A stretch of DNA of 64,000 nt, from contig CDPCPM010000160.1 of the NCBI GenBank assembly GCA_976551045.1, positions 992,001 to 1,056,000 of the forward strand, in the 5' to 3' direction. Positions within the stretch are counted from its first letter, which is position 1, and every line of letters starts with the position of its first letter. A model generated the notes under the pieces. The model did no database searches. It was given only the letters and a program-made list of their open reading frames with translations, and had not been told where the DNA came from. Source of the stretch: Glaucostegus cemiculus (Eukaryota). A program made the translations under genes and the position numbers. Positions 3,361 to 54,908 of the stretch are shown piece by piece.

Positions 3361-5113
3361 TGGAACTGTAAGATAGAGGAGAAATTGGGGCGAGAATCTC
3401 TGAAATGAAAGGGAATTCTGTAAGCAATTCTGTGGAGAGAGAGAGAAACTGGATTTCGCCTGAAATCGGAACTGACCTGTACTGCCACAAACAGGCAGGC
3501 TGTTTATCTGAAATTTTTGAATACGTTATTGATTCCCCGTGCGGAAGTAAAGGGTGAAGAAACCGTGACTGACTGTAACTGTACATATAACTGATAGAAA
3601 ACTCCCTCGGAAGCAAGAGCACAAAAGCTACTGACTCATGGTGAGGTGATAATTACTGTGCTCGGAACATTGGATATAGACCAGGTATGCTAGACAATAA
3701 AAGTGCTGGGTGCAATAATCAATGAGTGAGAAGCTTGCTCTAAACAATGAGGGTGATACCTGTCTTTGAATCTCTTGATTATAAACCAATTATGTTGGAC
3801 AATATGTACGATGTCTGTCTTTGGATCTCCGAGGCCTGACCGAAATTTGCGGCGCCGCATTCATTATGTGTGCATGGCAATACCTGTATAAATTTCCGTC
3901 TGATCCTTTGTACGAAAGAGTCCCCGGGAAGCAATTCTCACGAGTGCTAAAGAGACCTCTCCTCAGCGGTGTACTTCTAATACACGCGTTTTATTGAATC
4001 AACCTGGTGGCACTGTGTTACTTTGCCGCAGACAGAAGTGGGAACGAAAACGGGACGACACCCGGGGTCTGCAATGAGCAGAGGCGGCTAGTGAGGTTCC
4101 ACGGAGGGATTGTACTGTTTTGTTAGGTATTGGGTGTGATTGGCAAACACTCTCAGGTCGGCCCGGGGGCGCTACTGCCACGGAGCTGTCAGGGAGAGCT
4201 CCCTAAAGCTCTGAGTGTCTTCTCTGATGCCTGTGTATTGGAGGAAGTCGGACAACCCCTAGTTCCAGACGAACCTACTTTTCCCTGTTCGAAGAGTAGT
4301 TCAAGTCAGCAGACCTTGAACCTGGGGTTCATCTGCACTGGATAAACTAACGAAGTAATGAGAAGCAGACACGATGAGATATGGCAGAGATCGACTCAGG
4401 ATCCCGCAATGATGCAGAGACCAGGACACGAGAGTGCTGGTGATCCGGACCTCCCGCGGGACAGCTTTGAAGACTCGTGTGCGATTGTGGGTTTCAGGGG
4501 TGAGTTGGTCACAGACCTCAATGAGGGGCTAACTTTGAGAGCGGGACCCTCAAATTGCACTGTTTCCATGGTACCGAGGCCATGAAAACCCGGAACATCA
4601 CCGAGTCTCTGTGAATTTTCAGCTCAATGAGATAGAAACACTCTCCTGGGACTAACATCGGCGATTCGCCCAAGGGACGTCACTGAGCCCACCGCTAAAT
4701 TTCGCAGAAATGTAGCGGGTCTTCGGACCGAAATCACGTTGAAAGCAGGAGAGCGTAGGACCAAGTGTAACTGGCTGAGGTTCCCTGTTGTTCTCATTTT
4801 AGATATGGCACAGTCACAGAGAACAGAGAGAGCAGCAGTAAGTGAAGAGGGATCGGCCGGGTTCTCACGGCGCGGGGTTCCGCACCCACAGGAACCCTCT
4901 CCCCGAATCCGAACGGCCGGCCGATACCTGTCCGGAAGGGACCCCAAACTGAATCGAATCCTATCCATTATATGTAATTTCTCGTTCGGGAAGAGTGCAT
5001 TCTCCAACAATTGAGTTGGGTAGAAAAGGTTAAATATATTCATTCACCACAGTAATAAAATGAAAATATAAGTCCGGAAATAAATGACTAAACAAGACCA
5101 ATGTCTCACTCAC

Positions 5114-5431
5114 CAAGGACCCGCAGAGTGATGGTCGCTGAAGCTGAAGAGCCGCTATTCGTAAGCACGGTCAGACGATACTCCCCGCTGTCCGAGGTGT
5201 TCACCGACTTCAACAGGAGCGACCCGTTGGAGGTGAATACCTCAGCCCGTGATTGGTACCCACTACCATAGAGCACACTTTCACCGGTCCACTGGGCGAC
5301 TGTTTTCCCATTGAAAAACAAGTTCCCACCGGTGATCTCGGCCGACGGCCGCACTGAGAAGAAGGCATTTCCTCCGTCGGTCACATTGATCCGGCTCTGT
5401 TCTGCGTTGATGGGAAAAGCCTGAGACTCAC
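5114..5431 (-). CDS. Gene A exon 2, cysteine-less IgV-like CEACAM N domain (GESQAFPINAEQ...NGSLLLKSVNTSDSGEYRLTV...ITLRVL)
   Basis: 318 nt, acceptor CTTCCTCAG and donor G|GTGAGT. NGSLL and DSGxY motifs with no Cys are typical of CEACAM N domains. Confidence 0.9.
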
Positions 5432-5601
5432 CTGAGGAAGAGAAAATCGCGTGAGGGTAAAGCAAAAGAAGCGGATGGACTCCAGAATCTGCACTTAGCT
5501 CAAAAATTAGATCGTCTTTTGAAAGCTCATCCGCTTTTCCACAACTACCCGTTGCTGTGGTGATTCCCTGTTTACGGTCCTTCCGAGAGAGTGACCCTCA
5601 C

Positions 5602-5653
5602 CCGCAGGTATGAAGAGACAAAGAACGAGCGCGGTGAGCGGCAGACCCGCCAT
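5602..5653 (-). CDS. Gene A exon 1, signal peptide MAGLPLTALVLCLFIPA(G)
   Basis: ATG at 5653-5651, 52 nt, hydrophobic leader, phase-1 donor G|GTGAGG; paralogous to 10668-10719. Confidence 0.88.
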
Positions 5654-5749
5654 CCCAAGAGAGTAGCGTCTGTGTCTGCAACACTCGGAGACTGAGCCGC
5701 GCTTCCTGGTCTCCGGGCCACATCACTGGAGTCAGTCGTCAGAAGCGGC

Positions 5750-5765
5750 ACAGCTGATTGGACCG
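5750..5765 (-). promoter_or_regulatory. CCAAT box upstream of gene A
   Basis: GCTGATTGG on + (CCAATCAGC on -) about 105 nt upstream of the ATG; the same motif sits at the equivalent position in gene B. Confidence 0.5.
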
Positions 5766-5974
5766 ACTGCTGCCTGCCTGCGGAGTAGGCAGAGAACGAA
5801 GAAAAGTAAAACTGAGCAGGACCATTCGGCCCCTCGTACATTTTCCATCATGCTGTACCATCACATGTGACCTTTTGTCAGCACCACTTCCCTGCACTAA
5901 ACTCTAAAGGAGAGGAGAAGGGGTATCAACTTCTTTTTCCAGGGTAGAAATGTCTGATGCCAGAGGGCACGGGT

Positions 5975-6320
5975 TTATAGAACATAGAACATAGAAAATC
6001 TGCAGCACAATTCAGCCCTTTCGGCCCACAAAGCTGTGCTGAACATGTCCGTGCACTAGAAATTACTGGGCATTCCATAGACCTCTATTTTACTAAGCTC
6101 CATGTACCTATCTAACAGTCTCTTGAATGACCCTATCGTATCCGCCTCCACCACCGTTGTCGGCAGCCCATTCCACGCACTCACCACTCTCTGAGTAAAA
6201 CATTTACCCCTGACATCTCCTCTATATCTGCTCCCAAGCACCTTAAACCTATGTCCTCTTGTGGCCACAATTTCAGCCCTGGGGAAAAGCCTCTAACTAT
6301 CTACCCGATCAATACCTCTC
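5975..6320 (-). mobile_element. CR1-clade LINE 3' end, inserted antisense inside another CR1 3' fragment (about 5900-5975 and 6320-6590, +)
   Basis: TRGHRFKV...FTQRVVSAWNGLP C-terminal ORF2 motif and (ATAGAAC)n tail repeat. Confidence 0.85.
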
Positions 6321-7244
6321 TATGGTGAAAGGGGGACGTTTGAAGGAGACGTAGGAGGCAAGTGGGTGGGTGGGTGTCTGGAACGGGCTACCGGCGGTGC
6401 AAGCAGTTACAACAGTAAATTTTCAGCAGCATTTGGGCTGGCAACTGAGCATTCAGAGAATGGAGGGATATGGACCATCCGCATGCAGATGAGATTATTT
6501 TAAATTGACACCCTGGCAGGCACAAACAAGGTGGGCTGAAGGGCCTGGTCCTGTGCTGTACTGTTCTATGTCCTACATTCTATGTTCTATTTTTTGCCGC
6601 TTGATTCTTTACGATCAAGAAATCCTCTTCTTGATCCCTCAGAGACTGACTCACTGTAACCATCCTTGGAATGTTCGAAATATGTTCACCAACGTCTGGT
6701 TGGATGAACAATTTTATCCTCGTCTCCACACTCGTGCAGTCATAGATCTGAAACGACTTTTAATCTCACACACAAAAATAAAATTTCAACTCTCTGTCGT
6801 TCTGGTTTGTTTTCAATAATAGTCAGCCCACGCGGGAATATTACACATTCTAGTGCTCTAATTATGTGTAAAAGCCCTATGCAGGACCTTGTCAACTATG
6901 TTCTGTCGGAGCAAATACATCGTATCATCTGGTTCGTCCTTAAATATTCTGCTGGTAACAATCTGGAAAAAAATCAGATTTGTCAAGCATGCTTTCTGTC
7001 CCATGAATCTATTTTGACACTGACCTACCGTGGTATTATTTTCTCAGTGTTAATGAGAGACTCTTGAAACTCCCCAGACCTTAATGCCAGTCTAACCTCT
7101 CCTGATCTCTCTTTTTTGTTCTCTTCCTCCTTTCTGATATAGCAATGTTACCTTTCCTACTTTCCAATCTGTGGGGATTTTTCTGAACTCTGAGGAATTT
7201 AGGATAAGGACAACCCATGTGCCCACTTCCTCCATTGTCATCGT

Positions 7245-7540
7245 GAGGCGGTCAGTGTAACGTTATTACAGCGCTAGCGACCCGGGTTCAATTTCAGCCG
7301 CTGAAGAGTTTGTACGTTCTCCCCGTGTCTTCGTGGGTTTCCTCCGGGTGCTCCGGCTTCCTCCCACATTCCAAAAGACGTACATGTTAGGAGTTGAGGG
7401 CATACTATGTTGGCTCCGGAAGCGTGGCGACACTTGCTGGCTACCCAGCACATTCTCAGCAACGCAAAAAGACGCATTTCATTACTTGTTTCGATGTACA
7501 TGTGACTAATAAATAAATATCTTTTCTTATCTCTTTTAAA
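7245..7540 (+). mobile_element. tRNA-derived V-SINE (HE1-like)
   Basis: B-box-like GGTTCAATT, V-SINE core GAGTTTGTACGTTCTCCCCGTGTC..GTGGGTTTCCTCCGGGTGCTCCGG..CCTCCCACA, simple-repeat tail. Confidence 0.85.
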
Positions 7541-8824
7541 ACATCCGGTTCCATGCACCAGATCCTGAAAATAAACTTTTAAATTAACTAATGTTCATTT
7601 CTTTTAGATCCTGTTTTTTTTTTCTCCACACCTGTTCCCCACCACAGTGTGGATTGTTCTTCCTCCTTCCCTGAAGACACACGACAATATTCGCTTACCT
7701 CCTCGGCCATTTCCTTATTCTTATATATAGTTTAGTGCTTCCGTCTGCAAAACACCGGCGATTAACTCTTGCTGTTCCTTTTCACGTTTACCTTTGGAGA
7801 AATTCCTTCGGTAGGACTCGTAGGTGAATGCAGATTATGTGGATTGGGAATCTACCGAACAATAATGGGAGAGGGATTTTCCATTTTCACTGCCATGTCT
7901 CTCTAAGCGGGACATGGGAACGCTCTAAGTAAATGAGTTCTGGTTCAATCCTCCACCTCTATTTTCACCCTCTTCCATCTCTATGACAGCTGCCCTTTCT
8001 CTGCTTTATTTCCCAACATCTACATTCCCAAATACCCAATCTGTCAATATCGTCAGTTTGCTTCTACTTCTTTCAGTTCTGTGGACTGAGGTTGTTGTTT
8101 TGGACGGTTGCGCCCACTGAAATGTGGGGAATACATTAGCCTTTGATGCCGTCCATTCAACCAGACGTCAGACCCTGATCTTCCACACTGTCTCATCTCT
8201 CGGTCCTCAATGCCCCCCTCCCCATTGAATACCTGATTCCAGAAGGATTAACAGGGCGGGCGGGTACGGAGAGGTTATTTCCTCTGCGCTGTGGGGTGTG
8301 AAACAAGGGGAGGCTGTCTCAGGATAAAAGCTGTCCATATAATACAGTGATTAGGATGCTTTTATTCTCCAGAGGACTGTGAACCTTTGACATTCTGACC
8401 CAGGATGCAGCGAATATTCAGTCTCAGAGTGCAAAGTTTTTAGATAGGGTAAGTCTTGATTATGGACTCTTAAAGATTCCGGAGATTGCAGGCGACGTGC
8501 GATATCGGACATGACCCGTCTGAAAGGCGGAGCCGGCTAGAAGATTCGGGTGGTCTGCAGTTACCCACATGACCCCAGGTCCACGGATGCCAAACCACCC
8601 ACTTGTAGTAACAGGCCTACGCCTGTGCTCTGCGCTGTTGCACTTTCGACCACACATTTGAAAGCAGCTGTTACAGTGTTGGTAACAGGTGTGCAGTTGT
8701 GCCCCTCCATAGAAATGCTGACCTGCTGAATGTCTGAGCAGTGGAGCATCCTGACACGGGACTACCCTTCCCTAGATATTTGAAAGTTAATGTAGACTTT
8801 AAAGGAGGAGGCATCAAAATTGTT

Positions 8825-9065
8825 ATTAATTTATTTATTGGTATTGGTATTGGATTATTATTGTCACGTACCGAGGTACAGTGAAAAGCTTGTCTTCCAA
8901 ACCAATCGTACAGGTCAACTCATTACACAGTGCAGTTACATTGAGTTAAAAGAGTGCATTGGTGTAGTACAGGTAAAAAATAATGGCAGTACAGAGTAAA
9001 GTGTCACAGGTACAGAGAAAGAGCAGTGCAATAAGGTGCAAGGTCGCACCAAGTTAGATCGTGAA
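8825..9065. repeat. Interspersed repeat, related to an inverted copy at about 57380-57650
   Basis: TTATTATTGTCACGTACCGAGGTA...CATTACACAGTGCA...GTAGTACAGGTAAAA matches the reverse complement of 57500-57645. Confidence 0.65.
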
Positions 9066-10321
9066 GAATATATAACATGATTTTCCTTTGCATTTCGGGG
9101 ATGCTCTAATTATATCATCCACATAGAAAGATGGTGCAGGGAACAGACATTTGCAGGTTCCGAACCTTGGGTCAACTGTTGATAAATCGCTGACAAAGGG
9201 AGAAGCTCAGAACACCAGGGAAATGCGCTGTTCCGTGGCTTCTTTCACCTTCATTTCCAGAATCCAGAGTCCGAGACGAATAACAAAGATCTCCTTCAGA
9301 TTGTTATAGGATTCTAACGGCCATTAAACGGCCACGGTCTCAACAACTCAACCTTAAGTTTCTGCTGATACATTAAAGAACATTTCCTTTGTAGAAAGAA
9401 AGGTGAAGTGTTAATGCTGGTGTTCAAGAGGATTTGGATGCACATGTGTGGGGTACACGGGTGTTTAACACGAAGCTATAATGTGCACCGAGGACAAAGG
9501 CTATGGTATCCTTTATGACAAACACTTTGGAGACTCAATGTACGAAATTCTGTTGAAACTGCCCAGGATTTTGGGAGAAAGTGGACATGATGTCCAACGT
9601 ACAGTCCACCAAAGATAGGACAGACATGCCTTGAGGTTTCCCGCAGACCGATGACCAATTAGGATGTGCAGAGTCTGAGAGTCCTCAAAGAGAGGTAAAT
9701 GAATGCTGAGAGTCATTGGCAGAGGAGATGCTGAAAATGTTGATGCCACTTTCCTCTTTCCCATATTCGAAACCCAGGACTCGAATAATGGGTCATCATT
9801 AAGATTGGGAAACACTGGAACAGAACGCGTGTTTCATCCACTCCACTCCGCTCGGCAGTAAGATCACGGCTAATCTGATCTTGGTCACACCTGAATTCCA
9901 GTCGGTCCCCCATCAGTCGCAACCCCGGATGTTCAAATACATGTCTGTCTCGGCTGTGAATATTGTACACTCAATGACCCCACCTTCAGAGCTCTCCGGA
10001 TAGAGAAGTCAAAAGGTTCACCACCCTCGTTGAGTACAAACACCTCCTCGTCTGCATGTTAATTGCGTGACCACTTACTCTGAAATTCTTCCCCGTGCGA
10101 TATATCCTCGCTCGGATCCTCTGTGACAGCACAAACTATCCAAACCCCACTCCAGATTTTACAAAAATAGAATAAAGTCAAAATAGTTTGGGAGCAGGAT
10201 TTTTATTCCCAGCTTTCTTTCGACGTGGAGGTCAGGAACACGAGCGGCAAACGGGAAGCAGAGATGGGAACGTGGTCAAAGTCCGGGAGGAGGGTGATGT
10301 TTGTCTGAGCATGATTCTATC

Positions 10322-10357
10322 TGCGTGCGTGCGTGCGTTCGTGCGTTCGTGCGTGTG

Positions 10358-10440
<83 letters not shown>

Positions 10441-10475
10441 GTTTGTATGTGCATCTGTATCGGTGTTTGTGTGTG
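10322..10475. repeat. Compound microsatellite (GCGT)n-(GT)n-(GTCT)n
   Basis: Directly visible. Confidence 0.97.
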
Positions 10476-10544
10476 TCTTTCTCTGTTTCTGTTGCTGACA
10501 GTTTGCAAGTGATTTTGATTCGCTGGAAATTCTTTGCTGTCAGC

Positions 10545-10569
10545 TGGGCGGGGACCGGGCCAATCAGCG
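10545..10569 (+). promoter_or_regulatory. GC box plus CCAAT box upstream of gene B
   Basis: GGGCGGGG followed by GGCCAATCAGC about 105-120 nt upstream of ATG 10668; no obvious TATA box. Confidence 0.55.
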
Positions 10570-10667
10570 CTGCCGCCTCTAACGACCGACTCCAGTGAAG
10601 TGGCCTGGAGTTCAGGAAGCGCGGCTCAGTCTCCCAGTGTAACAGACACAGACGCTGCTCTCTTGAG

Positions 10668-10719
10668 ATGGCGGGGCTTCCGCTCACCGCGCTCGCTCTT
10701 TGTCTCTTCATATCTGCGG
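10668..10719 (+). CDS. Gene B exon 1, signal peptide MAGLPLTALALCLFISA(G)
   Basis: GAGATGG start context, 52 nt, donor G|GTGAGG. Confidence 0.9.
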
Positions 10720-10889
10720 GTGAGGGTCAGTCTCTCGGAGGGACCGTTAACAGGGAATCACCACAGCGGCGGATGGCTGTGGAAAAGCAGATGAGCTTCC
10801 CAGAGACGATCTAATTATTGAGCTAAGTGCAGATTCCGGAGTCTCTCCGCTTCTTTCGCTTTTCCCTCATACGAATTTCTCTTCCTCAG

Positions 10890-11207
10890 GTGAGTCTCAG
10901 GCTTTTACCATCAACGTAGAACACAGCGAGATCAATGCGAAAGACGGAGAAAATGTGTTCTTTTCAGTGCGACCGTCGGGCGAGATCAACGGTGGGAACT
11001 GGTTTTTCAATGGGAAAACAGTCGTCCAGTGGACCGGTGGAAGTGTGATCTATGGTAGTGGGTACCAATCACGGGCTGAGGTATTCACCTCCAACGGGTC
11101 GCTCCTGCTGAAGTCGGTGAACACCTCGGACAGCGGGGAATATCGTCTGACCGTGCTTACGAATAGCGGCTCTTCAGCTTCAGCGATCATCACTCTGCGG
11201 GTCCTTG
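10890..11207 (+). CDS. Gene B exon 2, IgV-like N domain (GESQAFTINVEHSEINAKDGENVFFSV...GNWFFNG...DSGEYRLTV...ITLRVL)
   Basis: 318 nt, AG at 10888-10889, GT at 11208; no Cys, conserved W, NGSLL and DSGEY. Confidence 0.92.
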
Positions 11208-14200
11208 GTGAGTGAGTCGTTGGTCTGGTTCAATCATTTATTTGTGACTGCTGCTTTCATTTTATGTTGGTGGTGAATGAATCTAATTTAATCTTTCCTG
11301 TCCAACTCACTTGTCCTTACACTGTAAGCGGGCAGCAGCTTACAGGCTGTTACACGCTGGCGTACAATTTGCTGAAGGAGGTATTCTTCCGATCGGGAAT
11401 TTGTAACGAAAGAATAAGGTCAATCTGCCTTCGATTCAGTTTGGGATTCCTCCCGGAAAGGCATCGGCCGTCTGGTAAACTACAGGCAGAGGATGCATGT
11501 GGGGTGGGACCGGCGCCGTGTTTCTCTGCCTCAGCTTCCCTTTCACCTCACTCTTCCCTCGCATGTTAAAGCCAGTTTTTACCACACTGAAAAGGAACTG
11601 CACTGTGATCCGGGAGTATTTCCAATGTCCCGAGTTTTCCAGACAGAGTCTGTGGAGAGAAAATAAGCAGAATGACGGTTTCAGGTCGATGCCATTTCAT
11701 CAGATAATTGAGTTGAGAGATCAATAATATCCCATCAGACCAGGGTCTTTCCTTCTGCCAGTGATCGGCGCTCCCGGATCGTCCTGAAAGGAAAGACTTA
11801 GGCCCTATTGCAAGAAACGGCGGAACTTCCAGGACTTATGCCCTGCATCACCACCAGACAAGGTGGATTTGGTCTAACGACTTGGGCTTGGGTCTAGAAA
11901 CTATTATTTATCACATAGGGGTTAATGCACACTGCTTCTAGAGCAGGGTCAGTGGTTCCAAAGATTTAAAGTGCTCTACGGGAAGTTTTACTCCAATGAC
12001 CTGTACCCGATGCAAGTACAAATGATACGTTAGCAAAACACAATGCGTTTTCATACAGGTTGTTCTAATTCACAAAGCGTATTTCTGTTGCTTTGAACTA
12101 ACGGCGTGGAATGGAGATTTCAGTGGCTCCATCGTCGGGAAAGCTGTTGTTAACACTTGAGCGCGGGACTGTTATGTGCTTTACATTTTAACTGTCTGTA
12201 TCTTACCTTTCGCCTTCCCAATACATGTTCAGAATTCAGTGCAGAATGTGCTATTCCTTGACAAATCTGTAGGTGAATTTCCTGATTATTAAAGTGAATA
12301 TTTGTATCCTTTGCACACCCTTTCAGTGTCGCTACTTCATCCACCTGACAAAACAAACAGAAATACTAGGGTGCATTAGCAATACAGACTGGGGTTCAAA
12401 ACTTGTCCATACATTTCATCGTTGTTTGGAGCTAAAGATAAGGGATCAAGACATCCACCCTGCCCAGACTTCAAAGTTATGTTTGTGGTAAATGATTCCC
12501 ATATTATGTGAGTTACCTGTTCCACCAGCGTAACATTTCTCAACAGAGTCATATAGTCATACAGCACGGAAACAGGCCCTTCGGCCCACTGACTACTACC
12601 CCACCATCAAGCACCCATTTTTACAAATCCTGCACCGATCCCATTTTATTCTCTACATTCCCATCAACTTCCCCCAGACTCGACTGCTCATCCGACACAC
12701 TGGGGACAAATTCCAGTTGACATTTAGCGAACCACTTTTTGCGGAAACCCAGCAATGAATACAGACGTTTATTGATTGGGGACAGGGAATCCATTCCAGT
12801 TCTTTTGTATAAACAGGAAATACTTTGGGCTTTCCTCCGTGACGCGGTCCAGACGACAGATCTCCCTGCTGATAGGTCAAAGCTTTCAGAAGCCCTGAAA
12901 CAACGAGACACCGCACATAATGCCTTTGTTTCAATTTTCTCACCCTTGGTTTGTAAACATAAACAGTAAAACAGATTAGGACATAATCAGAATTGTACGG
13001 ACACAATTATACATTAATCGTAGTTGCTGTCTCTGCCGTCACCTCTGCACGTGTTAGTTTGATTAATTACGTTGCAAATGGGTAGGAGCCGGCTTCATGG
13101 TATTTAGGAAGTTTTTTCTAGGGGTCGCAATAGCAGGTGTGATCCCCTCCATTCCAACAAGTTGCAGCTGGCTGTAATATTGATGCGGAAAGTCAGTCAG
13201 AGTAAGTATGACGTAGCCCGTCAGATGACGTGGCAGCAACGGAAACGAACCTTGGCAATACCTTTGGAAAGCAAATGTGCACCTGCTGTGTTAATATAAT
13301 ATTTAAAATCTAAGCAACTGGTTGCGTTTAGATAGTTTCTATAATGTTATAAATTATGTTCTGGTGCCACACTGGAGTTTTATAAAACAGAATTTGGTTC
13401 CAGGATAATTTGAGGCAGATGGCAGACAGTTTGGGCCAAGGAGGAAGATTTGAATGGGAGGAAAATGGCGAGGGGGTGGATATGGAAGGAGAGAATCAAT
13501 GCGGACGGGGTTACAACAGAAATTAAAAACTAGATGCATGAAAGGAAAGGAATAAACTCCGTTCGTGTGTTGGCGGCTGTAGCTTTAAATCGCGAAGTGA
13601 AACTTGTCCATTCACAGCTCGTCGCAATTCCCAAGTTTAGACATGTGTGGCAATGGACGGGGGAAGAGGTCCTGGGATTTACCTGGATCCCTCATGTTTT
13701 ATCTCCTTTGAGGGTGAGAAACATTGGGAAGACACTCGTAAGTGAGTGACTGGAGACAGAACAGTGAAATCTCTGGTCACTACGTTAAGCAATAGATGTT
13801 CTCCAGAGAGAGAGCCAAGTCACCAATTACACTCCCAGCAAAGGCCCGCAGGCAACTCGCACATCCATGACCCACGGCCAGACACAACACAATGCCCTTT
13901 CCAACGGCCGGGGCCAGCAGTGCGAGGCCCGTCGTTTAAGGCGACAATCTCATCTACTCTCTGCATTTAAATGAAACTCCGTCAAACCTCACAGAAAAAG
14001 ACCACTCGGCCCAGCAATCCATGTCTGATCCAACACGAATCCAATTTAATCCTCCTCATATTCCCAGCAATTCCTTCACGATTGTAGCACTCGGCTTAGC
14101 AGCAGGGAAATTTAGAGCAGCTAATTACCCGAGTGGAGGAGGAAGAATGGAGGAGCAGGTCATTGTTTACCTGGAGAGAGACAATGGGGATCTGGGTGTC

Positions 14201-14559
14201 CTACTGCATGAAGCACTGGGAGGTTATTGTGGAGGTAGATAAGGTTCAATGTTGTCTTCATTGCAAAGGCGATGAATATGGATCGCTACAGCTGTATCGA
14301 TAATGGGTGAGATCACAGCTGGACTGCATATAGGCCCTCTCTCTGTGCCTATCTGTCTTGCTGAATGTTGTCCTGGAGAGAGTGAGCGGGGTGCACCCTG
14401 CTCCACTACCGAACAAGAGAAAAATGACTCCTCATTGTGCAAGAGATATATTTTGCGTCATGCTCCGGTTATGGCTCAGAAACAGACGGAGCCCCGATAT
14501 TGTAGAGAACAGACAGGTGACTGGATCTGAAACCATCGACGAAGCAGGAAGAAAGGTCA

Positions 14560-15700
14560 GCTCTATAGAAAAAAAATGGATGGGAGATGCAAGCTTAACA
14601 GTTTAGAAATTGAACGGTGTTGCAGCTCAGAGTGACATTTGTGCCTGTGTACACAAATCAAAGAAGGTTAACGTGCATGTTCTCCAAACAATTAAGATGT
14701 AAATATTTAGCCCCTCCGTAACTGATACAACACATAAATCCCCTGTCCTTTATTGCAAAAAGGTCTCAGTATGAATGATGCCATGTTCCAACTATATCGA
14801 GCCCTGATGAGACAGCATTAGGGGTATGGAGTTACCTACAAGTAGGGACAGGGTTTCAGAATAAGAGATCACAATTTTAAGCCTGAGATAAGGAGAACTT
14901 CATGGCATTAGTTCTCCGAAATTTACTATTTATGTTAATGATACGAGGACGGGTTAATTCTCAGGTACTTTTTGTTGATCGTTGACACTAAAATAGGAGA
15001 AGGCACGTTCACATGAGGATATTGTGACCCAGCAACACTATGTGAACAGATTGATTCAGTGGGCAAAACCCGGTCACATAGAGTTCAATGTAGGGAAGTG
15101 TGACGTCGTGCACTTCAGTGAGTGGAATCCAAGGGCAGACTATTAACTGCATGGAAAGAGACTGCAAATGAGTGATGTACGAAGGATCCCAACGGTGCTT
15201 TGCAAGAATCACAAGGAATTGGCAGGCAGCTGCAGCAAGTAGTTACAGAGGCAACTAGTTTATTGGCATTTATTGCGGTGGGATTCAGAAATATGGAGGT
15301 TTGTTCCAGTTCTGCACGGTGTTGCTGAGGCCACTTCTGGAATATTGTGCAGTTTTTTCCACTTACCAAAGAAAGGATACAATCGAGTTGGAGCGAGTCC
15401 AAAGGTAATTCCCAGCCTAATTTATCGGTTGAGATGATTGTCCATTTCGAGAGACTCAACAGGTTGGGTCTGTATTCTCTAGAATGTGGAAGAATTAGGT
15501 TCTTCACTGAGGGCTGGGGACTTCTTGACTTCTCTACCCTAGAGAGCTGCAGAAGCGGAAATGTGGATCTTATTCCAAGCCACCATTCCCAGACAATGAA
15601 AATGCAAGAGAATCGAGCAGTATGGCGAGAGGGTGGGAAATTAGAGTGAGGACAAAACGGGATCAGCTATGATCTTATTGGTTGGCGGAACGGGCTTTTT
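14560..15700 (+). mobile_element. Decayed CR1-clade LINE fragments
   Basis: Remnants of DTKIG, EFNVGKCDV.HF, LAFIA.G and RP.LEYC motifs. Confidence 0.7.
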
Positions 15701-16061
15701 TAATTGGTCGCATGTGGCCCCTGCATCGAGCTCCTGAACAGTTCCTGATGTTTTCTCTTCGTTAACTAATTACTAATGTGCAATCTCAGTGCACTATTTT
15801 GCGTGTGTTCAATAACTCGTTTCAGATGTCAGTTGCTTCTTTTTGTTCAGATGACTCGTTTAATTCCGCTTTTCTTGTCAGAAATCTCTCATTTTCTCAA
15901 CCTGACACGACACACAAACTACATATTCCACGTCTTGCATTCATAAATCAAAAAGAAACAGAACTAAGATTCGCAAATACCAAATGATGCGCTGATTACC
16001 ACTATCACGCTCCTCTGCATCATATAACACCAGTGATCGTTACTCTCCTATATTTTGACAG

Positions 16062-16337
16062 AAGCCATTTCTAAGCCCACCATCTCAGCCAATAACACTC
16101 ATCCCGCAGAGCACAACGACGCAGTTGCTCTAACGTGCAATGCCACGGGGTCACCAACCTCATTTGAGTGGTTTCATCGAAATGAAACAATTCGCTCCGG
16201 TGATAGGACCGCCCTGACTCATGGCAATAAAACCCTCGTCATATCGGGAGTGTTGCGGACTGATGGAAAATTTGTGTGCCGAGTGTCTGATGCTTACAAT
16301 GAAAAGAGAAGTGATCCATATAATCTGAATGTTGCCT
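16062..16337 (+). CDS. Gene B exon 3, IgC2-like A1 domain (EAISKPTIS...LTC...W...FVC...SDPYNLNVA)
   Basis: 276 nt, acceptor TTTTGACAG, donor T|GTAAGT; CEACAM A-domain pattern KPxIxxNNxxPxExxDAVALTC. Confidence 0.9.
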
Positions 16338-16968: not shown

Positions 16969-17233
16969 ATGGACCGGAATCTCTAATCATATCAATCAGC
17001 CCAGAGCTTGCTTTATATCCTGCGGGATCAAATGTAACTTTTTCCTGTTCCGCTGTTTCAAACCCCGCTGCTCAGTTTCAGTGGAATCGCGATAATTCAA
17101 CACATATGAAAAGCGGGAATCAGCTAATCATTGCAGACCTGTCCTTGAATCACACTGGCAATCACACTTGCAAAGCTTTCAACTCGATAACACAGAAATC
17201 CAAGTGTGACAACAAGGTTCATTGTTGTTATAG
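16969..17233 (+). CDS. Gene B exon 4, IgC2-like B1 domain, frameshifted near its 3' end (265 nt instead of 264)
   Basis: GPESLIISISP...GSNVTFSCSAVSNPAAQFQW...TC; one extra base around 17196-17203 relative to paralogous exon 23596-23859; donor G|GTAGGT. Confidence 0.8.
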
Positions 17234-21526: not shown

Positions 21527-21802
21527 AACCTGTATCTAAGCCCGTTATCACATCCAATGACACCGACCCCGAAGAATACAATGACACTGTTAGTTTGACG
21601 TGCCACGCAAGAGGGACGGATGTTTCGTATCTGTGGTTTATGAACAATAAGACAGTTAACGCTGGCGGTAGGATTACCCTGAGTTCCAACAACAGCGCCT
21701 TGACTATCTCTGGGGTGCTGAGATCGGTCGAGGAATTCACCTGCGTTGCGTACAACTTGATGAATAAAAACACCAGCGATCCATTTCTACTGAACGTTCG
21801 CT
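21527..21802 (+). CDS. Gene B exon 5, A2 domain (EPVSKPVITSNDTDPEEYNDTVSLTC...FTC...SDPFLLNVR)
   Basis: 276 nt, acceptor TTTTAACAG, donor T|GTAAGT, open frame with C-W-C Ig core. Confidence 0.92.
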
Positions 21803-23595: not shown

Positions 23596-23859
23596 ATGGA
23601 CCGGAAAATCTAACCATTTCCATCAGCCCAGACCTTGCTGCGTACGGTATGAGGTCAAACGTGAATTTTTCCTGTTCGGCTGTTTCGAACCCCGCTCCTG
23701 CATTTCAGTGGTATTTCAATGGTTCATCTCTTCAGACAAGTGGACGGCGCCTGAACCTTGTTGACTTATCCCTGAATGACACTGGCAGTTACACATGTGA
23801 GGCGTTTAACAATTTAACCAAAAGGTCGAGCTCAACAACACGAAACCTTGTCGTTTTAG
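23596..23859 (+). CDS. Gene B exon 6, B2 domain (GPENLTISISP...FSCSAVSNPAPAFQWYFNG...DTGSYTCEAFN...)
   Basis: 264 nt, acceptor TTTTAG, donor G|GTATGT. Confidence 0.92.
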
Positions 23860-25573: not shown

Positions 25574-25849
25574 AACCTGTTTCCGAACCCAGTATTACAG
25601 CCAATGCCACCATCCTCATAGAGTACAATGACACCGTGGAACTAACATGCTTCGCAACAGGCACGGCGGTCTCTTATCTGTGGCTTGACGACAATAGCGC
25701 GATAGTTCCTGGTGGCAGGTTTGAACTGGGCGCCGATAACAGCACACTCACTAGTTCTGAAGTGTTACGAACAGATGGACCGTTCACCTGCATCGCATAC
25801 AACTCGATTAGCGAAAAGTCAAGCGAGCCGTTTGATCTCGAAGTTTACT
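25574..25849 (+). CDS. Gene B exon 7, A3 domain (EPVSEPSITAN...LTCFATG...DGPFTC...FDLEVY)
   Basis: 276 nt, acceptor TTTTCAACAG, donor T|GTAAGT. Confidence 0.92.
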
Positions 25850-27389: not shown

Positions 27390-27650
27390 ACGGACCGGAT
27401 CGTCCAAATATCACTACAAACCCTGACTCACCTCCTTACCTGGCTGGAAGCACCGTCACTTTAACATGTTCCGCAGGGTCCAGGCCAGTCGCTAACCTGG
27501 ATTGGTATCTGAACGGTGACTTTCTACAAACTGGGCAGCAACTTATCCTTGACAATATTTCAGTGAGCAAGACGGGGAACTACACTTGTCAGGCATTTAA
27601 CAATTTTACAGAAAAGTACAGTGCCTCAACTCCAGAAATAACAGTGCTCG
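27390..27650 (+). CDS. Gene B exon 8, B3 domain (GPDRPNITTNP...LTCSAGSRP...WYLNG...TGNYTCQAFN)
   Basis: 261 nt, acceptor TTTTAG, donor G|GTATGT. Confidence 0.92.
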
Positions 27651-33421: not shown

Positions 33422-33697
33422 AACCCGTGTCTAATGTCAATGTAGCACGCAACAATTTAAGTCCCGTGGAAATCAACGATACAGTTGTACTCATTTGTGA
33501 CGCGCAGGGTACTATTCAGAGACGAACATGGTTGAAAAATAACCTACCCATCCAGGAAAATGACAGAATATATACATCTTCAGATAAAGCAAATCTGACC
33601 ATAACCCGTGTTAACAGAACTGACACCGCAACATATAACTGTACCGTAAGCAATGATTACAACAGCGGCAGTGCAGCAATCTACATGCAAGTTAACT
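33422..33697 (+). CDS. Gene B exon 9, A4 domain (EPVSNVNV...LICDAQG...WLKNN...DTATYNCTVSN...MQVN)
   Basis: 276 nt, acceptor TTTACAG, donor T|GTAAGT. Confidence 0.92.
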
Positions 33698-33784: not shown

Positions 33785-34042
33785 ATGGACCGGAAAACGT
33801 TAGAATTCTGCCGCAGGGACCCGTTGAGGCAGATATTGGTTCACGTCTTACATTAACTTGTTCTGCCCAGTCAGTCCCCAGTGGTGAATATAAATGGTAC
33901 AATCGGACAAATCATCTACAGACAGGGCAGCAGTACACCATCGAGCCAGGAAGGTCGGTTGACAGTGGGAATTATACTTGTGAGGTTTATAACAACGTAA
34001 CCATGAAACGCAGCAGCCGCACCGTCGAAGTACTCGCACGGA
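33785..34042 (+). CDS. Gene B exon 10, B4 domain (GPENVRILPQGPVEADIGSRLTLTCSAQSVPSGEYKWYN...DSGNYTCEVYN...VEVLAR)
   Basis: 258 nt, follows an 87-nt intron, acceptor TTTGCAG, donor A|GTAAGT; not in the ORF track. Confidence 0.9.
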
Positions 34043-37417: not shown

Positions 37418-37544
37418 TTCGCAATGTTCACACTCCCGGAGGTTTGTCAGCTGCGGCGATAGCCGGGATTGTGATTGGCGTTGTTGCTGGAATTGCCATT
37501 GTGGGTGCATTCGCTGCCTGGTTTATCAAGAAATATGCAAGCAG
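37418..37544 (+). CDS. Gene B exon 11, transmembrane domain (IRNVHTPGGLSAAAIAGIVIGVVAGIAIVGAFAAWFIKKYAS)
   Basis: Polypyrimidine tract + CAG, 127 nt, phase 1 in and phase 2 out (AG|GTATAT); CEACAM1-like AIAGIVIGVVA and basic stop-transfer residues. Confidence 0.92.
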
Positions 37545-38799: not shown

Positions 38800-38849
38800 G
38801 ATGAAAGTTGCGGAGATACATCACGGGAGAGGAAAACCAGGAGTAAACA
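38800..38849 (+). CDS. Gene B exon 12, cytoplasmic exon C1 (RMKVAEIHHGRGKPGVN)
   Basis: Acceptor CTTACTTAG, donor A|GTGAGT, 50 nt; bridges phase 2 to phase 1 as required; positional equivalent in gene C (53059-53114). Confidence 0.7.
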
Positions 38850-40020: not shown

Positions 40021-40085
40021 ACACCTTGGCTACGGATGTTGCAGACTCGGCACAGACGTATGAAAATATACCAAGGAATCAAAAG
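40021..40085 (+). CDS. Gene B exon 13, cytoplasmic exon C2 (NTLATDVADSAQTYENIPRNQK)
   Basis: Acceptor TTCCCACAG, donor AAG|GTTAGT, 65 nt; clear paralog at 52558-52622. Confidence 0.88.
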
Positions 40086-40754: not shown

Positions 40755-40793
40755 AGTAGCGCTCACCCGACCGATGAAAACTCCACTTACATG
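40755..40793 (+). CDS. Gene B exon 14, cytoplasmic exon C3 (SSAHPTDENSTYM), first half of ITAM-like motif
   Basis: Acceptor CAACAG, donor ATG|GTAAGG, 39 nt, phase 0/0; paralog at 49616-49657. Confidence 0.88.
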
Positions 40794-41106: not shown

Positions 41107-41157
41107 GGACTGGTGTTGGAAGATCGATCACTTTACAGCGACCTAAGGAGGAATTAG
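41107..41157 (+). CDS. Gene B exon 15, cytoplasmic exon C4 (GLVLEDRSLYSDLRRN*), second half of ITAM-like motif and stop
   Basis: Acceptor TTCAACAG, TAG at 41155-41157; paralog at 49249-49320. Confidence 0.88.
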   Translation, partial: GLVLEDRSLYSDLRRN

Positions 41158-49248: not shown

Positions 49249-49320
49249 TCACTTGTCAAATGATGTTCCCACATACCTCTTCAGGTCGCTGTAAACGGAT
49301 CGATCTTCCAGCTTCAGTCC
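49249..49320 (-). CDS. Gene C cytoplasmic exon C4 (GLKLEDRSVYSDLKRYVGTSFDK*)
   Basis: Acceptor TTTAACAG; TGA at 49251-49249 if the internal AG|GTATGT is not used as a donor. Confidence 0.82.
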   Translation of the reverse strand, partial: GLKLEDRSVYSDLKRYVGTSFDK

Positions 49321-49615
49321 CTGTTAAACGTGAATAAATCTCCATGATTCACAACACATTGCAACAGAATCCGTCATTGACAAAAAATAAGTTAAAGATC
49401 GTTAAAAAATACCTCGCGAGTATTTAACACTTGGACACTGAATGGAATTGAGGGACATGGGGACCAGGGCTGAAAGCGCATCTGAGACACACAGTTATGA
49501 CATTAAATGGCGGAGGAGCCTCAAGGAGTCGAATTACTGACACTTCCTTGTGTTTCTTGGTGGGTGAAATGGAAGCATTTCCTTCAAGAAGGAATGAACA
49601 AAGAAGTTCTCTTAC

Positions 49616-49657
49616 CATGTAAGTGGAGTTTCCATCTGGTGCATTCGTACTTATATT
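49616..49657 (-). CDS. Gene C cytoplasmic exon C3 (NISTNAPDGNSTYM)
   Basis: Acceptor TCTCTATCCAG, donor ATG|GTAAGA, 42 nt. Confidence 0.88.
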
Positions 49658-49884
49658 CTGGATAGAGAAAAAATATATATATTTGGCAATAACACAAAAA
49701 ATTCAATGATCTCTCCCCACACACATGTACTCCGAGATCAATGTTCACATTCTTTACTCAATAATGCACTGTTCGCTTGTTCTGAACTCCGCCTGATTTT
49801 AACACAGAGTGATAGCGAAATATTGTCTCTGAGATGGTGAAAACCTCTCAAGGCAATTACACCATTCGTGAGGCTCTAGTACTT

Positions 49885-52085
49885 CATATGAACACAAGAA
49901 ATAAGGGCAGGAGTAGGCCATTTGGCCCATCGGCCCTGCTCCGCCAATCAATAACGTTGTGACTTATCCGGCCGTGGACTCAGCTCCACCCACCTACCTG
50001 TCCCCCATAACCCTGAATTCCCCCCAGCATACACAAATCTACCGAACTGCGTCTCACAGATGTTTGAAGAGACAGCCTCTACTGTTTCCCTTGGCAGATA
50101 ATTCTACAGATTCAGTACTTTCTGGGAAAAACAGTCTTCCCTCATCTCCATCCTAAATATATTCCACGAATATTGAGGTTATGCGTTATCGCCAATTCCA
50201 TGCACACTTTTATTATAGATAAGTCTTTACTTCGACACCTTATTGAACACCTTCTGGGAATTAAAGTACACAACATCCATCTGTCCCCTATATCCGCTAC
50301 GCTCATTATATCCTCAAAGAACTCCAGGAAGTTTGTCAAACAGGACATTCACTTCCTGAAACCATGCTAATGCAAACGCTCTTATTCATATGTCTCGTTG
50401 TTTCTTCATTGGAGTTAGCTTCAAGCATTTTCCTGACTACAGGTGTCAAGCCAACTGCCATATAGTTGCCAGCCGTTTGCTCACATACTTTTTAAACCAT
50501 GCGCCGAGACCTGCCCAAAGTCCAGAAATTTTGGTAAATTCTCACAACCCCGTCTACTATCACTTCCGCAATTTCTTTCAGTTCCCCGGGATACATCCCA
50601 TCAGGACCATAGTTCCTATCTGCCTTTCGGACCACGAGTTTACTTATCACTAACTCTTTACTGACAGTGAATGTATCGAGGCCCACCCCTCCCATCGCAT
50701 CCATAACAGCATTCTTTGCCATGTTAGACGTCTCCTCCAGCGTGACGACAGACCTGAAATAGCGATCCTAGGTCTTGGCCATTTCCACATTACCCAAAAT
50801 TAATTCCCCCTTCTGTCGTTTCGAGGAACCAACGTTCATTTTAGCCACCATTTACCGCTTTGTATAAATACAAAACCATTTACAATCTGTACCTGTATTT
50901 TGTGCCAGTTTTCTTTCATAATCTATCTTCGTTTCCTTATTGCTTGCTCGGTGGTTCTTTGCGACTTTTTAAAGATTACCCAATCTTCCAGTATTCCACT
51001 GCAGTTGGCGACTCTGTCTGCGTGAGCATTTAGCTAATGGCTTCCTTTATTTGCTCTGTTATCCAAGGCTGTCTCTCCGCACGCTCATTGTCGTTGCCTT
51101 TAACTGCAATATCGACTCCCTCGACCAACTAGATGTGCCCAGTCCATGTGGAAGTTAAGTCCTCGAGGACAAATGCCGTTGCATGCTAACATGCATCAGA
51201 TATTTCTTGGTTTATTACCTGTGCCACTGTCATCTTATCATTCCGTGGCCTACAGACAACTCCCACCAGTGCTTTTTTCCGGGAACCAGTCCTAACCTCC
51301 ACCCAGATGAACACAATACTCTAATCATTTGATTTCATACCGTTTCTGACGATCGGACTGACCTCATGCTTAACTGAGAGCGCTACCCTACCTTCCTAAA
51401 CTTTCTGCCTATCCGGCCGTATTATGTGAGTGCCTTGCATATTTAATCCCCAAACATCTCTACCCTACCACTACATTTCTGTAATGGCAATTAAATCAAA
51501 CCCCTTTCTACTGGTTTGTGCCACTTCACTGACCTAGGTTCGAATACTGTGGGCATTGACATAAAGTGACTTTTAGATTCTAACAAGCTTGGTGCCCTTT
51601 GCATTTGAATTTTCTCTATTCCACGTTTACTTTTCTAACATTTGCTTTACTCTCTGCATTGCTTCCCTCTGTCGTTCTGCATTGATTGCCATCCACCTGA
51701 CATATAACTTCAAACCCTCTGCAACATCGCGAGCAAGGACATTAACCCCAGTCCTGGCAAGATGAAGATCATTCGGTTTATTCAGGTCCCACTTTCCAAC
51801 AAACCGGTTCTAATGCCTCAGGTAATCTAAAACCCTCCCCACTGCACAACTGATCAAGCCACATATTTATCTAAACGGTGCTGAATGGCCTACCCTGATC
51901 AGTCACTGGCACTGATAGAAATCCTGACGTTATTACCTTCGAGGTCCTACTTTTTAACATAACTCCTTGCTCGCTAAATTCGGGTTTTAAGAAATAATCT
52001 CGGTTTATCCCTATATTGTTGGGACCTATGTGCACCATGACGGTGATATAGTGGTTGTTTCTGTCGACCAACTCGTCTTCGTAAC
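49885..52085 (-). mobile_element. Internally deleted CR1-clade LINE including ORF1 (esterase-like) remnant
   Basis: SCLTNFLEFFE, GPDGMYP..LKEIA, and VHIGPNNIG...LKSRTSKVITSG motifs. Confidence 0.85.
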
Positions 52086-52557
52086 CATTCATCATAACGC
52101 ACGAATTTAGATCTGTCTGTGGAAGTAGGGGCTTGAATTTTAAGTAATATCTAAAACATGTATGACAAATTGTGGCCTAAAGTGATGGCAATCATGTACT
52201 GTTGCTTGTAATAAACACTGAGCAGGCCTACAACTGATCTCAGAATGAAATCTGCCACCTTTGTCCAGCCTTTCCTCCCCTTGTAACTCCAGCTCCACCC
52301 ATATTATTGCCATTCGGATGACTCTACAGATCAAGATCAATGTCAATCACCGGCCGACAACAATTGCGGGCGTTGTCATGAACGCTACTCCCCCGTAAAC
52401 GGAGAAGTTTAAGAAGTCCGACATAGGACTCGGGAAAGGAAAGCTAATGCATGCAGTTCAGAGCTGCCAAATACAAAACTACTCTCATGGCTGCGATGCA
52501 ACATCGCCTCTCCTTAAAACAACACCTGAAGCCACGAATATAATGCCAGGTACCAAC

Positions 52558-52622
52558 CTGTTCATTCCTTGGGAAATTTTCATAGGTCTGCAATGCGTTC
52601 ACGGTGTTTGTGGCCAAGGTGC
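52558..52622 (-). CDS. Gene C cytoplasmic exon C2 (STLATNTVNALQTYENFPRNEQ)
   Basis: Acceptor TTTCCATAG, donor CAG|GTTGGT, 65 nt as in gene B. Confidence 0.88.
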
Positions 52623-53058
52623 CTATGGAAATAAAACACATGCAGTCACAGCAGCGAAAAGCATCAGGAGAAGTTATTCAGCACAGAGGAAATCTATCCG
52701 GCTCCATTCATGGGACCAGCTATCAAATTAGGTTCATGACCTCTCCTGGCTATGAGCAAATGAACATTCGTCCAGTAACTGAGATCATATTATGATGAAA
52801 ATAAAGAGAGATTCGCTTTGCATAAACTCGTATTCACCTTCCACACTCACATTCTGGTATTGAGTTGAAAAGTTCAACTTATTTAACCGGACAAAACGTT
52901 TAACATAACAGCGGAATTAGTGACCGTTCATTAAGATGCAAATATCCAGCTTCAGTACCGGGTGACACACAGTTCATCAGATCAATTCCCAGAGCCAGAG
53001 GAAATGTTAATCTTTCCATGGGTGCAGTAACAGAGCGGATGAAAAGGAGTTCACTCAC

Positions 53059-53114
53059 TCTTTCCTCCTGAAGTGATGCTCGTGCCATATTTTGCCTGGG
53101 GCGGACCTTTCACC
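53059..53114 (-). CDS. Gene C cytoplasmic exon C1 (RVKGPPQAKYGTSITSGGK)
   Basis: Acceptor TTTATTCAG, donor A|GTGAGT, 56 nt, phase 2 to 1. Confidence 0.72.
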
Positions 53115-54796
53115 CTGAATAAACATGAAGAGGTCAAAGGTGAATTCTGCAGGAAGTTATTTCCTTGGACTGACACACCGAGTGAGAACTGCTTCTGAAA
53201 TCGCATTTACTGGCAGTCGAGTAATTCCTTGCAGCTGTTCCAGCTATCCGATTTACCCACTTTACCCACTTCTCAATTGTAACTCGAGTATGGATTAATA
53301 AACTCATGATTTGCGGACTGAGGTTAGTTGTTATCGACAGGGTAAAAGAGAGTCATTAATACCCAGGAAAGACACATCAGTGCAGGCGCCAGATGTCCTC
53401 CACTGCACGGCTCTATTTCTATTCCTCAGACTTCTACATATGTCCCCACAATATATATATTTATCCAGCTTCCTCAGCTACCACATTGGACGCACTTTCA
53501 AAGCATCTGCAGGGAGATCGTTAAATCTTTCAACAATGCGCCTTGCAGAAACAAAAGCATTTCTTCGACAAGTACCCTGTTGCGTTTATTTTCTAATTGT
53601 GACTTTAATCCTCGACTCTTTTGCCAAGGTCACCAACCTCCCACTCTCCACATTATCCACCTTCCACATCAGTTTTTGTGCTTCGCTCAAGTCTCCACTC
53701 AGCCTATCCTTCTCCAAGGAAAACAGTCCCAGTCTCTCCAACCTATCCCTGATCCCAGGAACCACTTTCCTCTATCTGTTCTGGGCTCTCGCTGAAGTTC
53801 TCAGCTGCTTACTGTAATGTGGTGACCAGAAGTAAAAATTAACTCATGTATCTTACAATACGGACAAGTTTTCTTTTCTGTTTTATATATCTTCCATCCT
53901 ATAATACTCCTTGCGTATGTGGATAAAGACAGGAATTGCTTCTGCCTTCTTAACTAATATAAGAGGGAAACCACTGCATATTACGCCTCGGTGGTGTCTA
54001 ACCTGACCCAACAACATCGAATTCTATAACTTCAGGTAACCACTCCCCTCTGTCAATCTTTAACCTTCTGCGACCGGCCCCTCCAGTCCATCTATTTCCC
54101 CTCCTCCTCCCTCTCAATCTGCCCTTCACCAACGTATTCCTCCTTCGGTTTTCCCTCCCTAACACCTTCCCTTTAATCTGTGGACCACTGCCCTCTCCTA
54201 TCAGATGACATCTGGTTCAGTCCTTTCCCACTTCCATCTAACACCTCCCAGTTCCTGAAACCCATTCTCATTCTACCCTGCCCTCACCTGCCAATCATCT
54301 ACTCTCTTGGATAGACCTATCACCAGCCAGCTCTTGCTCAAACATTTCCCCAACATATTTATACTGGCTACGTCCCCGCTTTCCTTCCAGGCCTCTGGAA
54401 AGGTCACGACCTGAAACGTCAACACATCGCCAGCCTGCTCATGCCCCACCAACTCCCCCATCTTTTTATACTGCCTACCTCCCCACTTTCTTTCGCGTCC
54501 TCTGGAAAGGTCTCGACCCGAAAAGTCATCTCTACGTTTCCGTCCACAGGTGCTGCCTCCCCGTTGAGTTCCCCCAGCTACTTTGTCTGTAACTTCCTCC
54601 ATTAACCTCCAACATCGGAAATTCGCGTTCATGGTGTCAACGTCCCTTTGGAGCCACAGGCGTCATTTTATTTTATCTGTTAATACTGTTATGTGGTGGG
54701 ACACATTGTTCAGGCTGTAATTTCGATACAAATTCTGCCTGAATACTCTTCCCATAATTTAAGGTAGAAACAATATTCGGAAGAAAACACATTTAC

Positions 54797-54908
54797 CTGC
54801 CAGTTTTCCTTGCGATGAACCAACCACTGATTCCGCTGATCAAACCCACACCAAGTGGACCAAGAACGATGCCCGCGATGGCGCCAGGGCCGAGGGTACA
54901 ACTGGCAT
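54797..54908 (-). CDS. Gene C transmembrane exon (DASCTLGPGAIAGIVLGPLGVGLISGISGWFIARKTG)
   Basis: 112 nt, acceptor CTTAACAG, phase-2 donor AG|GTAAAT; PGAIAGIV motif as in CEACAM1. Confidence 0.9.

Follow-up and report, generated by a model that had tools for sequence, protein, structure and literature searches.

In the dog, CEACAM1 and CEACAM28, a gene with an immunoreceptor tyrosine-based inhibitory motif (ITIM) and one with an activation motif (ITAM), share a single converted 5' tract of 2,332 bp with 99% identity, as described in the accessible sections of the reports (PMC2110893, PMC2832619). For cartilaginous fishes, the accessible sections of PMC3628338 and PMC4079198 report only expressed sequence tags of the little skate. 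Here we describe a window, i.e. the whole stretch of 64,000 nucleotides analysed, from the ray Glaucostegus cemiculus (assembly GCA_976551045.1, contig CDPCPM010000160.1, hereafter C160, positions 992,001 to 1,056,000 of the forward strand). It contains the 5' ends of two CEACAM-like genes lying head to head, gene A on the minus strand and gene B on the plus strand. A preliminary description had interpreted them as an inverted duplication with one gene-conversion-like tract over the promoter, leader and N exon. A and B represent two old classes. Their 5' block, which runs from the CCAAT box to a point 9 nt beyond the N exon, was most likely mixed repeatedly by non-allelic gene conversion, with the latest tract probably joining A and B across ~240 nt at the 3' end of the N exon.

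Comparison of the window with itself (blastn) gave an inverted match of 5007–5765 (minus) with 10556–11314 (plus), 88.8% identical over 760 nt, and a second one of 4866–4958 (minus) with 11430–11520 (plus) at 74%. The whole match covers 4866–5765 (minus) and 10556–11520 (plus). The inverted alignment of the preliminary description was thus confirmed, by blastn and by segment alignment, but its 5' limits (5790 and 10540) were not: homology begins at the CCAAT box (5765 and 10556), upstream of which the two arms are unrelated (35% identity). The start codons are 5,015 nt apart. The features of the two 5' ends are as follows.

5654–5765, minus strand: gene A proximal promoter and 5' untranslated region (UTR), CCAAT box at −108 from the ATG; 5' limit of the A–B homology
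5602–5653, minus strand: coding part of the gene A leader exon, 52 nt, phase 1
5432–5601, minus strand: gene A intron 1, 170 nt; 88% identical to B, family baseline 81–82%
5114–5431, minus strand: gene A N exon, an open frame for an IgV domain without cysteines
5105–5348, minus strand: gene A side of the putative recent conversion tract; core 5105–5272, 3 differences in 168 nt
4866–5104, minus strand: start of gene A intron 2, homologous to B 11217–11520 at 69–78% with indels; unconverted reference
10322–10476, plus strand: microsatellite (GCGT)n/(GT)n/(CTGT)n, directly upstream of the gene B promoter
10556–10667, plus strand: gene B proximal promoter and 5' UTR, CCAAT box at −108
10668–10719, plus strand: coding part of the gene B leader exon
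10720–10889, plus strand: gene B intron 1, 170 nt
10890–11207, plus strand: gene B N exon, an open frame for an IgV domain without cysteines
10973–11216, plus strand: gene B side of the putative recent conversion tract; core 11049–11216, permutation p = 1e-4
11217–11520, plus strand: start of gene B intron 2, with 27 class-diagnostic columns in 11267–11507

Both N exons are 318 nt long with AG/GT ends. The earlier count of about 22 differences between them, with three in the final ~52 codons, was recovered exactly (22 sites; 11108, 11140 and 11187 within the last 52 codons). A and B were 87% identical in the promoter and 5' UTR, 92% in the leader, 88% in intron 1, and 88% and 98% in the 5' and 3' halves of the N exon. 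Identity was 78% in the first 107 nt of intron 2 and 69%, with indels, in the next stretch. The drop that had been noted just beyond the donor of exon 2 is a sharp step at 11216/11217, 9 nt beyond the N-exon donor (3/168 against ~21/107 differences, Fisher p = 4e-7). A bidirectional core promoter shared by A and B is not favoured, because the two genes possess separate CCAAT boxes at a distance of 4.8 kb.

A genome-wide search with the N exon of gene B gave 39 matches, which all fell within 619–2,004 kb of contig C160. Mapping of 522–2,086 kb of this contig revealed a 1.4-Mb array of repeating units, each with one minus gene and one plus gene in head-to-head orientation. In 15 head-to-head pairs, the start codons were 3.8–7.3 kb apart. 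The pair in the window is therefore no recent local duplication, since the layout recurs in 15 units and both classes predate the split from sawfish. At the end of the array lies the last plus gene, gene J (C160:2003699–2062761), with an open frame of 971 aa. A (GT)n-type run upstream of the promoter, near the 5' edge of the shared block, was present in 15 of 15 plus genes and in none of 14 minus genes examined.

The units also exchange long same-strand blocks. The A side differs from the next unit by 0–0.1% over 14 kb and then by 2–5%. Gene B resembles genes H and J from ~9,500 to 16,000 (2–5% different; N exon 7–9%) and gene D from ~26,000 on (0.5–1.9% different up to 42,000). On the sequence evidence, the units are mosaics of unequal crossover. 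A reciprocal footprint in A relative to its near copy C, the minus gene of the next unit, was rejected. Divergence changes from 0–0.1% to 2–5% at about window position 2000 and stays there through 8200; since it has risen by ~2000 and does so only mildly (4–8%) in the block, it indicates a crossover breakpoint and not a tract. The adjacent units C160:962048–1000208 and 1029236–1067369 (window from 37236 on), 67,188 nt apart, were 99.3% identical over 38 kb. With 0–0.1% difference over 14 kb, they may reflect a very recent duplication or a false one. False duplications among near-identical units would change the counts given here, but not the conversion tests. Four units had no spacer (C160:1230068, 1374062, 1719967 and 1860521); in these, the minus gene is missing its promoter along with most of its leader, and the plus gene has neither leader nor N exon.

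Conversion between the plus and minus strand classes was strongly supported by comparing the N-exon set, i.e. the 35 of 39 matches longer than 300 nt and with an identity of 77% or more (five rows without an alignable promoter are absent from the promoter tree only). Mean identity between plus and minus genes was 82.0% in intron 1, against 80.7% and 81.9% within the classes, and 81.4% in the N exon, against 79.9% and 81.7%. In intron 2 it was 69.7% and 65.8%, against 77–79% within the classes. In a scan from 10556, the 27 class-diagnostic columns in 11267–11507 were preceded by a single one, a gap column. The intron-2 tree required one change of strand and the N-exon tree eight. Approximately unbiased (AU) tests rejected monophyly of the plus class for the N exon (p = 1e-53) and intron 1 (p = 2e-60). 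An independent tract was found in the pair M1498/P1503, with 96% identity in intron 1, 97% in the N exon and 71% in intron 2 (tree support 100/100). These features, a bounded tract, trees incongruent with those of the flanks and an effect on both synonymous and intron sites, are those by which non-allelic conversion is recognized.

A Sawyer-type permutation placed the A–B tract at 10973–11216 (p = 1e-4). In its core (11049–11216), A and B differed at 3 of 168 sites (1.8%), the lowest value of 190 lineage pairs (median 19%), whereas B and J differed at 13 (p = 0.018 versus A–B). The core was distinct from the 5' half of the N exon (p = 6e-4) and from the promoter–leader–intron 1 block (p = 6e-5). 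Among 16 plus genes, B ranked only 13th in likeness to A in the promoter and 10th in the leader, and quartets gave 7 class-type sites in the promoter and 12 in intron 1. The 5' part is thus an older layer, attributable to array-wide mixing. The single tract over promoter, leader and N exon consequently shrinks to a recent one at ~10973–11216; the similar 5' UTR and intron 1 that had been reported are real (87% and 88%), but the likeness in promoter and leader is not specific to B. In the structural model, the near-identical codons 54–105 correspond to the predicted strands D–G, while four residue differences remain in C, C' and C'', which are strands of the usual ligand face. The binding face would therefore be only partly homogenised, and the suggested homogenisation of the ligand-binding exon applies to strands D–G but not to C, C' and C''. 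These comparisons give only moderate support to A and B themselves as the partners of the last event.

The preference for the adjacent partner was not limited to A and B. With near copies pooled into nine plus lineages, a grouping made after the trees had been seen, the partner lineage was the most similar one in the N exon in six of nine units (permutation p = 5e-5; 3.5e-4 without A/B). The bias was weak in intron 1 (p = 0.04) and not significant in intron 2 (3/9, p = 0.20). Trees across species combined 10 genes from the present genome with 20 proteins from databases and carry a long-branch warning near the root. The membrane-proximal domains grouped by class: the plus class with sawfish P0007 and P0031 (100/98), and the minus class with sawfish and stingray proteins (99/97). 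In the N-domain tree, A, B and J were placed together (99/88). Sawfish P0031, which has an ITSM (immunoreceptor tyrosine-based switch motif), was placed with the sawfish minus-class ITAM protein P0064 (92/82), to which it is 90% identical versus 63% to its tail ortholog J. The stingray ITSM protein likewise grouped with stingray minus-class proteins (93/94). The expectation that N exons cluster by species and downstream exons by gene was thus largely borne out, within the genome and across species, by the membrane-proximal domains and by the sawfish and stingray N domains, P0007 excepted.

Several observations weigh against the proposed history. N domains clustered incompletely by species, with sawfish P0007 falling among A, B, D and J (98/88). 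In three of the nine units the partner did not come first (ranks 2, 5 and 6), and the pooling of lineages was not blind to the trees. Support for the class split in intron 2 was modest (74/89, and 38/87 on a slightly different cut). In the core, A–B (3/168) was not significantly closer than A–C (7/168, p = 0.34), and C–B and E–B each differed at 8/168. Quartets gave only 1–3 sites shared by A and B alone in the 3' half of the N exon. Codons 54–83 are the most conserved part of the domain in the family, so constraint adds to the A–B likeness there. The pattern fits transfer in either direction, and a short double crossover would look alike. A and B are each frameshifted when every exon is used, and their N domains are 82–83% identical to that of J at the protein level, below the closest known decoy pairs.

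In a rather unlikely alternative, conversion took place between ancestors or non-adjacent copies (the A/C/E lineage with the B/H/J lineage), and A and B look closest only because they retained the shared state while further change occurred in H/J, C and E. At 12 of the 13 sites of the 3' half where B and J differ, B has the same state as A, and several of the J states are rare in the family, as expected for a fast J branch. C–B and E–B also yielded significant tracts, and partners would have been reshuffled since the units are mosaic by unequal crossover. However, A–B was the closest of seven comparisons among these genes, the tree of the 3' half joined A with B, albeit weakly (87/30), and the array-wide partner bias remained without A/B.

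Purifying selection on the shared promoter and ligand-binding exon of two old paralogs, without any conversion, is very improbable. The CCAAT box and leader are conserved family-wide and codons 54–83 have low amino-acid entropy, but non-coding intron 1 and synonymous sites are affected as well. Synonymous divergence between A and B was 0.07 in the N exon, 0.12–0.52 in six IgC exons and 0.74 in the transmembrane (TM) exon; 6 of 79 synonymous sites differed in the whole N exon versus 121 of 372 in the IgC exons (p = 2e-6). N exons showed a dN/dS of 0.76–1.47 against A or B (16 comparisons), and IgC exons 0.35–0.79 in 15 of 16. Purifying selection alone is largely refuted by the class identity profile and the AU tests, in which trees with a class split inside the block were rejected. 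The earlier preference for conversion was thus upheld by the N versus IgC synonymous sites, intron 1 and the trees, but not by the identity step inside the N exon, which at synonymous sites was not significant alone (2/43 vs 4/36, p = 0.40). Synonymous divergence was low in exons A2 (0.175) and A3 (0.117) compared with B2, B3, A4 and B4 (0.35–0.52), which hints at an older conversion of A-type exons (21527–21802 and 25574–25849 in B).

A single recent inverted duplication that attached a copy of promoter, leader and N exon to another gene body would explain why homology starts abruptly at the CCAAT box; it is highly implausible given the layered identity of the block (88%, then 98%), the homologous but diverged intron 2 continuing past it, the 15 head-to-head units and the presence of both classes in sawfish. 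An assembly or polishing artefact involving closely similar inverted copies is just as implausible: some units are 99.9–100% identical over more than 14 kb and possibly false duplications, and a search for a read set of this individual found none, but A and B still differ at 3 core and 22 exon sites, and the pattern repeats among further pairs as well as among proteins from ray species whose genomes were assembled independently.

Beyond the converted block, gene B has the exon order L-N-A1-B1-A2-B2-A3-B3-A4-B4-TM, followed by four cytoplasmic exons. Gene A has L-N-A2-B2-A3-B3-A4-B4-TM and a tail; its remaining exons lie left of the window (contig C160 974061–991289). The further features are as follows.

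16062–16337 and 16969–17233 (265 nt), plus strand: gene B exons A1 and B1; B1 carries a frameshift
21527–21802 and 23596–23859, plus strand: gene B IgC exons A2 and B2, open
25574–25849 and 27390–27650, plus strand: gene B IgC exons A3 and B3, open
33422–33697 and 33785–34042, plus strand: gene B IgC exons A4 and B4, open
37418–37544, plus strand: gene B transmembrane exon
38800–38849, 40021–40085, 40755–40793 and 41107–41157, plus strand: gene B cytoplasmic exons, ITAM-type tail
49249–59261, minus strand: gene C 3' exons from A3 to the ITAM tail, minus gene of the next unit; 100% identical to those of gene A, offset 67,188

The tail of gene B ends in YENI...YMGLVLEDRSLYSDL and that of gene A in YENF...YMGLKLEDRSVYSDL, both ITAM-type. 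Both contain YxxL-x7-YxxL, preceded by YENI/F, and conform to the ITAM consensus. A and B as an inhibitory/activating pair was ruled out, as both tails are ITAM-type. The transmembrane segment predicted for A and C (in C, window 54797–54920) reads GIVLGPLGVG, with a proline replacing the leucine of its relatives.

The frameshift of gene A lies in B2 and is common to four other minus copies; that of gene B is a single additional base close to where exon B1 ends, present in 1 of 20 B1 exons, and may be a recent mutation or an assembly error. Without A2 and B2, gene A is open for 598 aa, and gene B is open without A1 and B1. Sawfish protein models show shorter layouts matching A and B without the frameshifted modules, and in one sawfish minus-class model N is joined straight to A3. 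With automatic boundaries, all 17 minus-class genes in C160:850736–1997705 carried a flagged lesion, four of them (A included) only in the A2/B2 module, and 7 of 13 full plus genes carried none. A role of all minus genes as pseudogene donors was not adopted, in view of these four genes, the open frame of A without A2 and B2, and the sawfish model that joins N to A3.

CEACAM proteins have an N-terminal IgV-like domain without the usual disulfide cysteines, and the N domains of A and B are both cysteine-free. Their exon order, too, is that of CEACAM genes, with leader, N, alternating A/B IgC exons, TM and short cytoplasmic exons in conserved phases. Profile matches of the N domain were weak V-set and I-set ones, with the V-set matches below the cut-off. 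An IgV fold was predicted (pLDDT 85), for which Foldseek placed PD-L1 and MOG on a par with CEACAM N domains; on its own, the fold is thus not diagnostic. Of 28 protein matches, 24 had automatic CEACAM names, two PSG names and two other names; all came from rays, and the best was a sawfish protein (73%). Among sequences in the Protein Data Bank, CEACAM6 was second of four weak matches. For the synteny markers LIPE, CNFN, TMEM145 and TOMM40, the LIPE-, TMEM145- and porin-family matches lay on other contigs, which could not be ordered, and PLAC8/CNFN gave no match. With a fold search unspecific for the family and synteny markers on other contigs, A and B are assigned to the family by their exon structure, their lack of cysteines and the proteins nearest to them, as CEACAM-like genes with ITAM-type tails. 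More distant genes with leader and N exon (35–50% protein identity) occur at C160:672200–723584 and 484851–606610; several have no nearby IgC exons and are possibly single-domain CEACAMs.

Gene J differs from A and B in its tail, which contains TEYAAV and TDYATL (TxYxxV/L motifs) and a 53-nt first cytoplasmic exon, and is thus ITSM-type and CEACAM1-like. It was the only ITSM-type tail in the region examined, versus 38 ITAM-type last exons. PMC13278318 attributes a first cytoplasmic exon of 53 bp to CEACAM1, although PMC2110893 also mentions one in an ITAM gene of the dog. The N exons nearest to that of J were those of H (99.7%), B (91.5%), A (90.3%), C (89.9%) and E (89.6%), with all others at most 83%. 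Gene H has an N domain identical to that of J and an ITAM-type last exon; its extra IgC exons are damaged. Unit G/H (C160:1624000–1650000) is ~99.7% identical to unit I/J (1989616–2011000) up to exon B1, and the ITAM-type tail of H versus the ITSM-type tail of J suggests a recent chimera, an activating gene with the N domain of an inhibitory gene. J thus combines with H, B, A, C and E opposing tail motifs and closely similar N domains, which fits paired-receptor logic as far as sequence can tell. Seven sequencing runs matched the locus, all with a share of at most 0.07 and none of RNA; the four inspected turned out to be contigs with related sequences.

The two inverted arms, separated by 5 kb, may fold back on one chromatid, so that repair copies a short tract without deletion of a gene. 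Such pairing for short conversions was proposed in the accessible sections of PMC5112662 and PMC13278318. Same-strand units would exchange long blocks by unequal crossover, and selection may favour ITAM receptors resembling J. The 5' end of gene B resembles the lineage of ITSM-type J. Tentatively, conversion and crossover together could have carried J-like N domains over to activating receptors, along the lines suggested for paired CEACAM decoys. We similarly regard as possible, but far from settled, a two-step relay in rays from a J-type ITSM gene to same-strand ITAM genes by crossover and on to their inverted partners by N tracts, with N domains re-converging separately in this ray, sawfish and stingray. 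Our reading would extend the CEACAM receptor/decoy pattern of mammals, frogs and reptiles to cartilaginous fishes, and the relay, if true, would do so for pathogen-decoy CEACAM evolution. The 15 replicate head-to-head units on one contig offer an internal experiment on the preference for inverted neighbours, usually assumed from one or two pairs.

The conversion mechanism is already known from dog, Xenopus and primate SIGLEC genes, but we found no description of the repeated head-to-head layout or of the setting in cartilaginous fishes. The literature searched, which lay outside subscription journals and supplements, yielded nothing on a CEACAM array in rays or sharks, on paired receptors or conversion in them, or on a repeated head-to-head CEACAM layout. 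As far as the cited sources are accessible, the ray locus compares with known systems as follows. As in dog CEACAM1/CEACAM28, the upstream flank, leader, intron 1, N exon and start of intron 2 are homogenised, and the A-type exons are less similar. Unlike in the dog, the ray block is 660 nt long and layered (88%, then 98%), joins two ITAM genes and belongs to a repeated head-to-head unit. SIGLEC11 and SIGLEC16(P) are likewise head to head, ~9 kb apart, with repeated conversion of upstream and V-set exon sequence per lineage (PMC5701461). There too, a damaged partner was able to donate and a simple repeat lies at the 5' boundary, a (GAAT)n tract that the (GT)n microsatellite at the 5' edge of the ray block recalls. 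The SIGLEC genes, however, belong to another family and form a single inhibitory/activating pair, not an array, with tested binding and expression. Xenopus and reptile ceacams resemble the ray genes in N-exon conversion between genes on opposite strands, an N dN/dS of ~1 or above, and one or few ITIM/ITSM genes among many ITAM relatives (PMC5112662, PMC13278318). Genes within one Xenopus subcluster have mostly the same orientation (PMC5112662), in contrast to the ray, where orientation alternates between plus and minus and the neighbouring partner is favoured in conversion.

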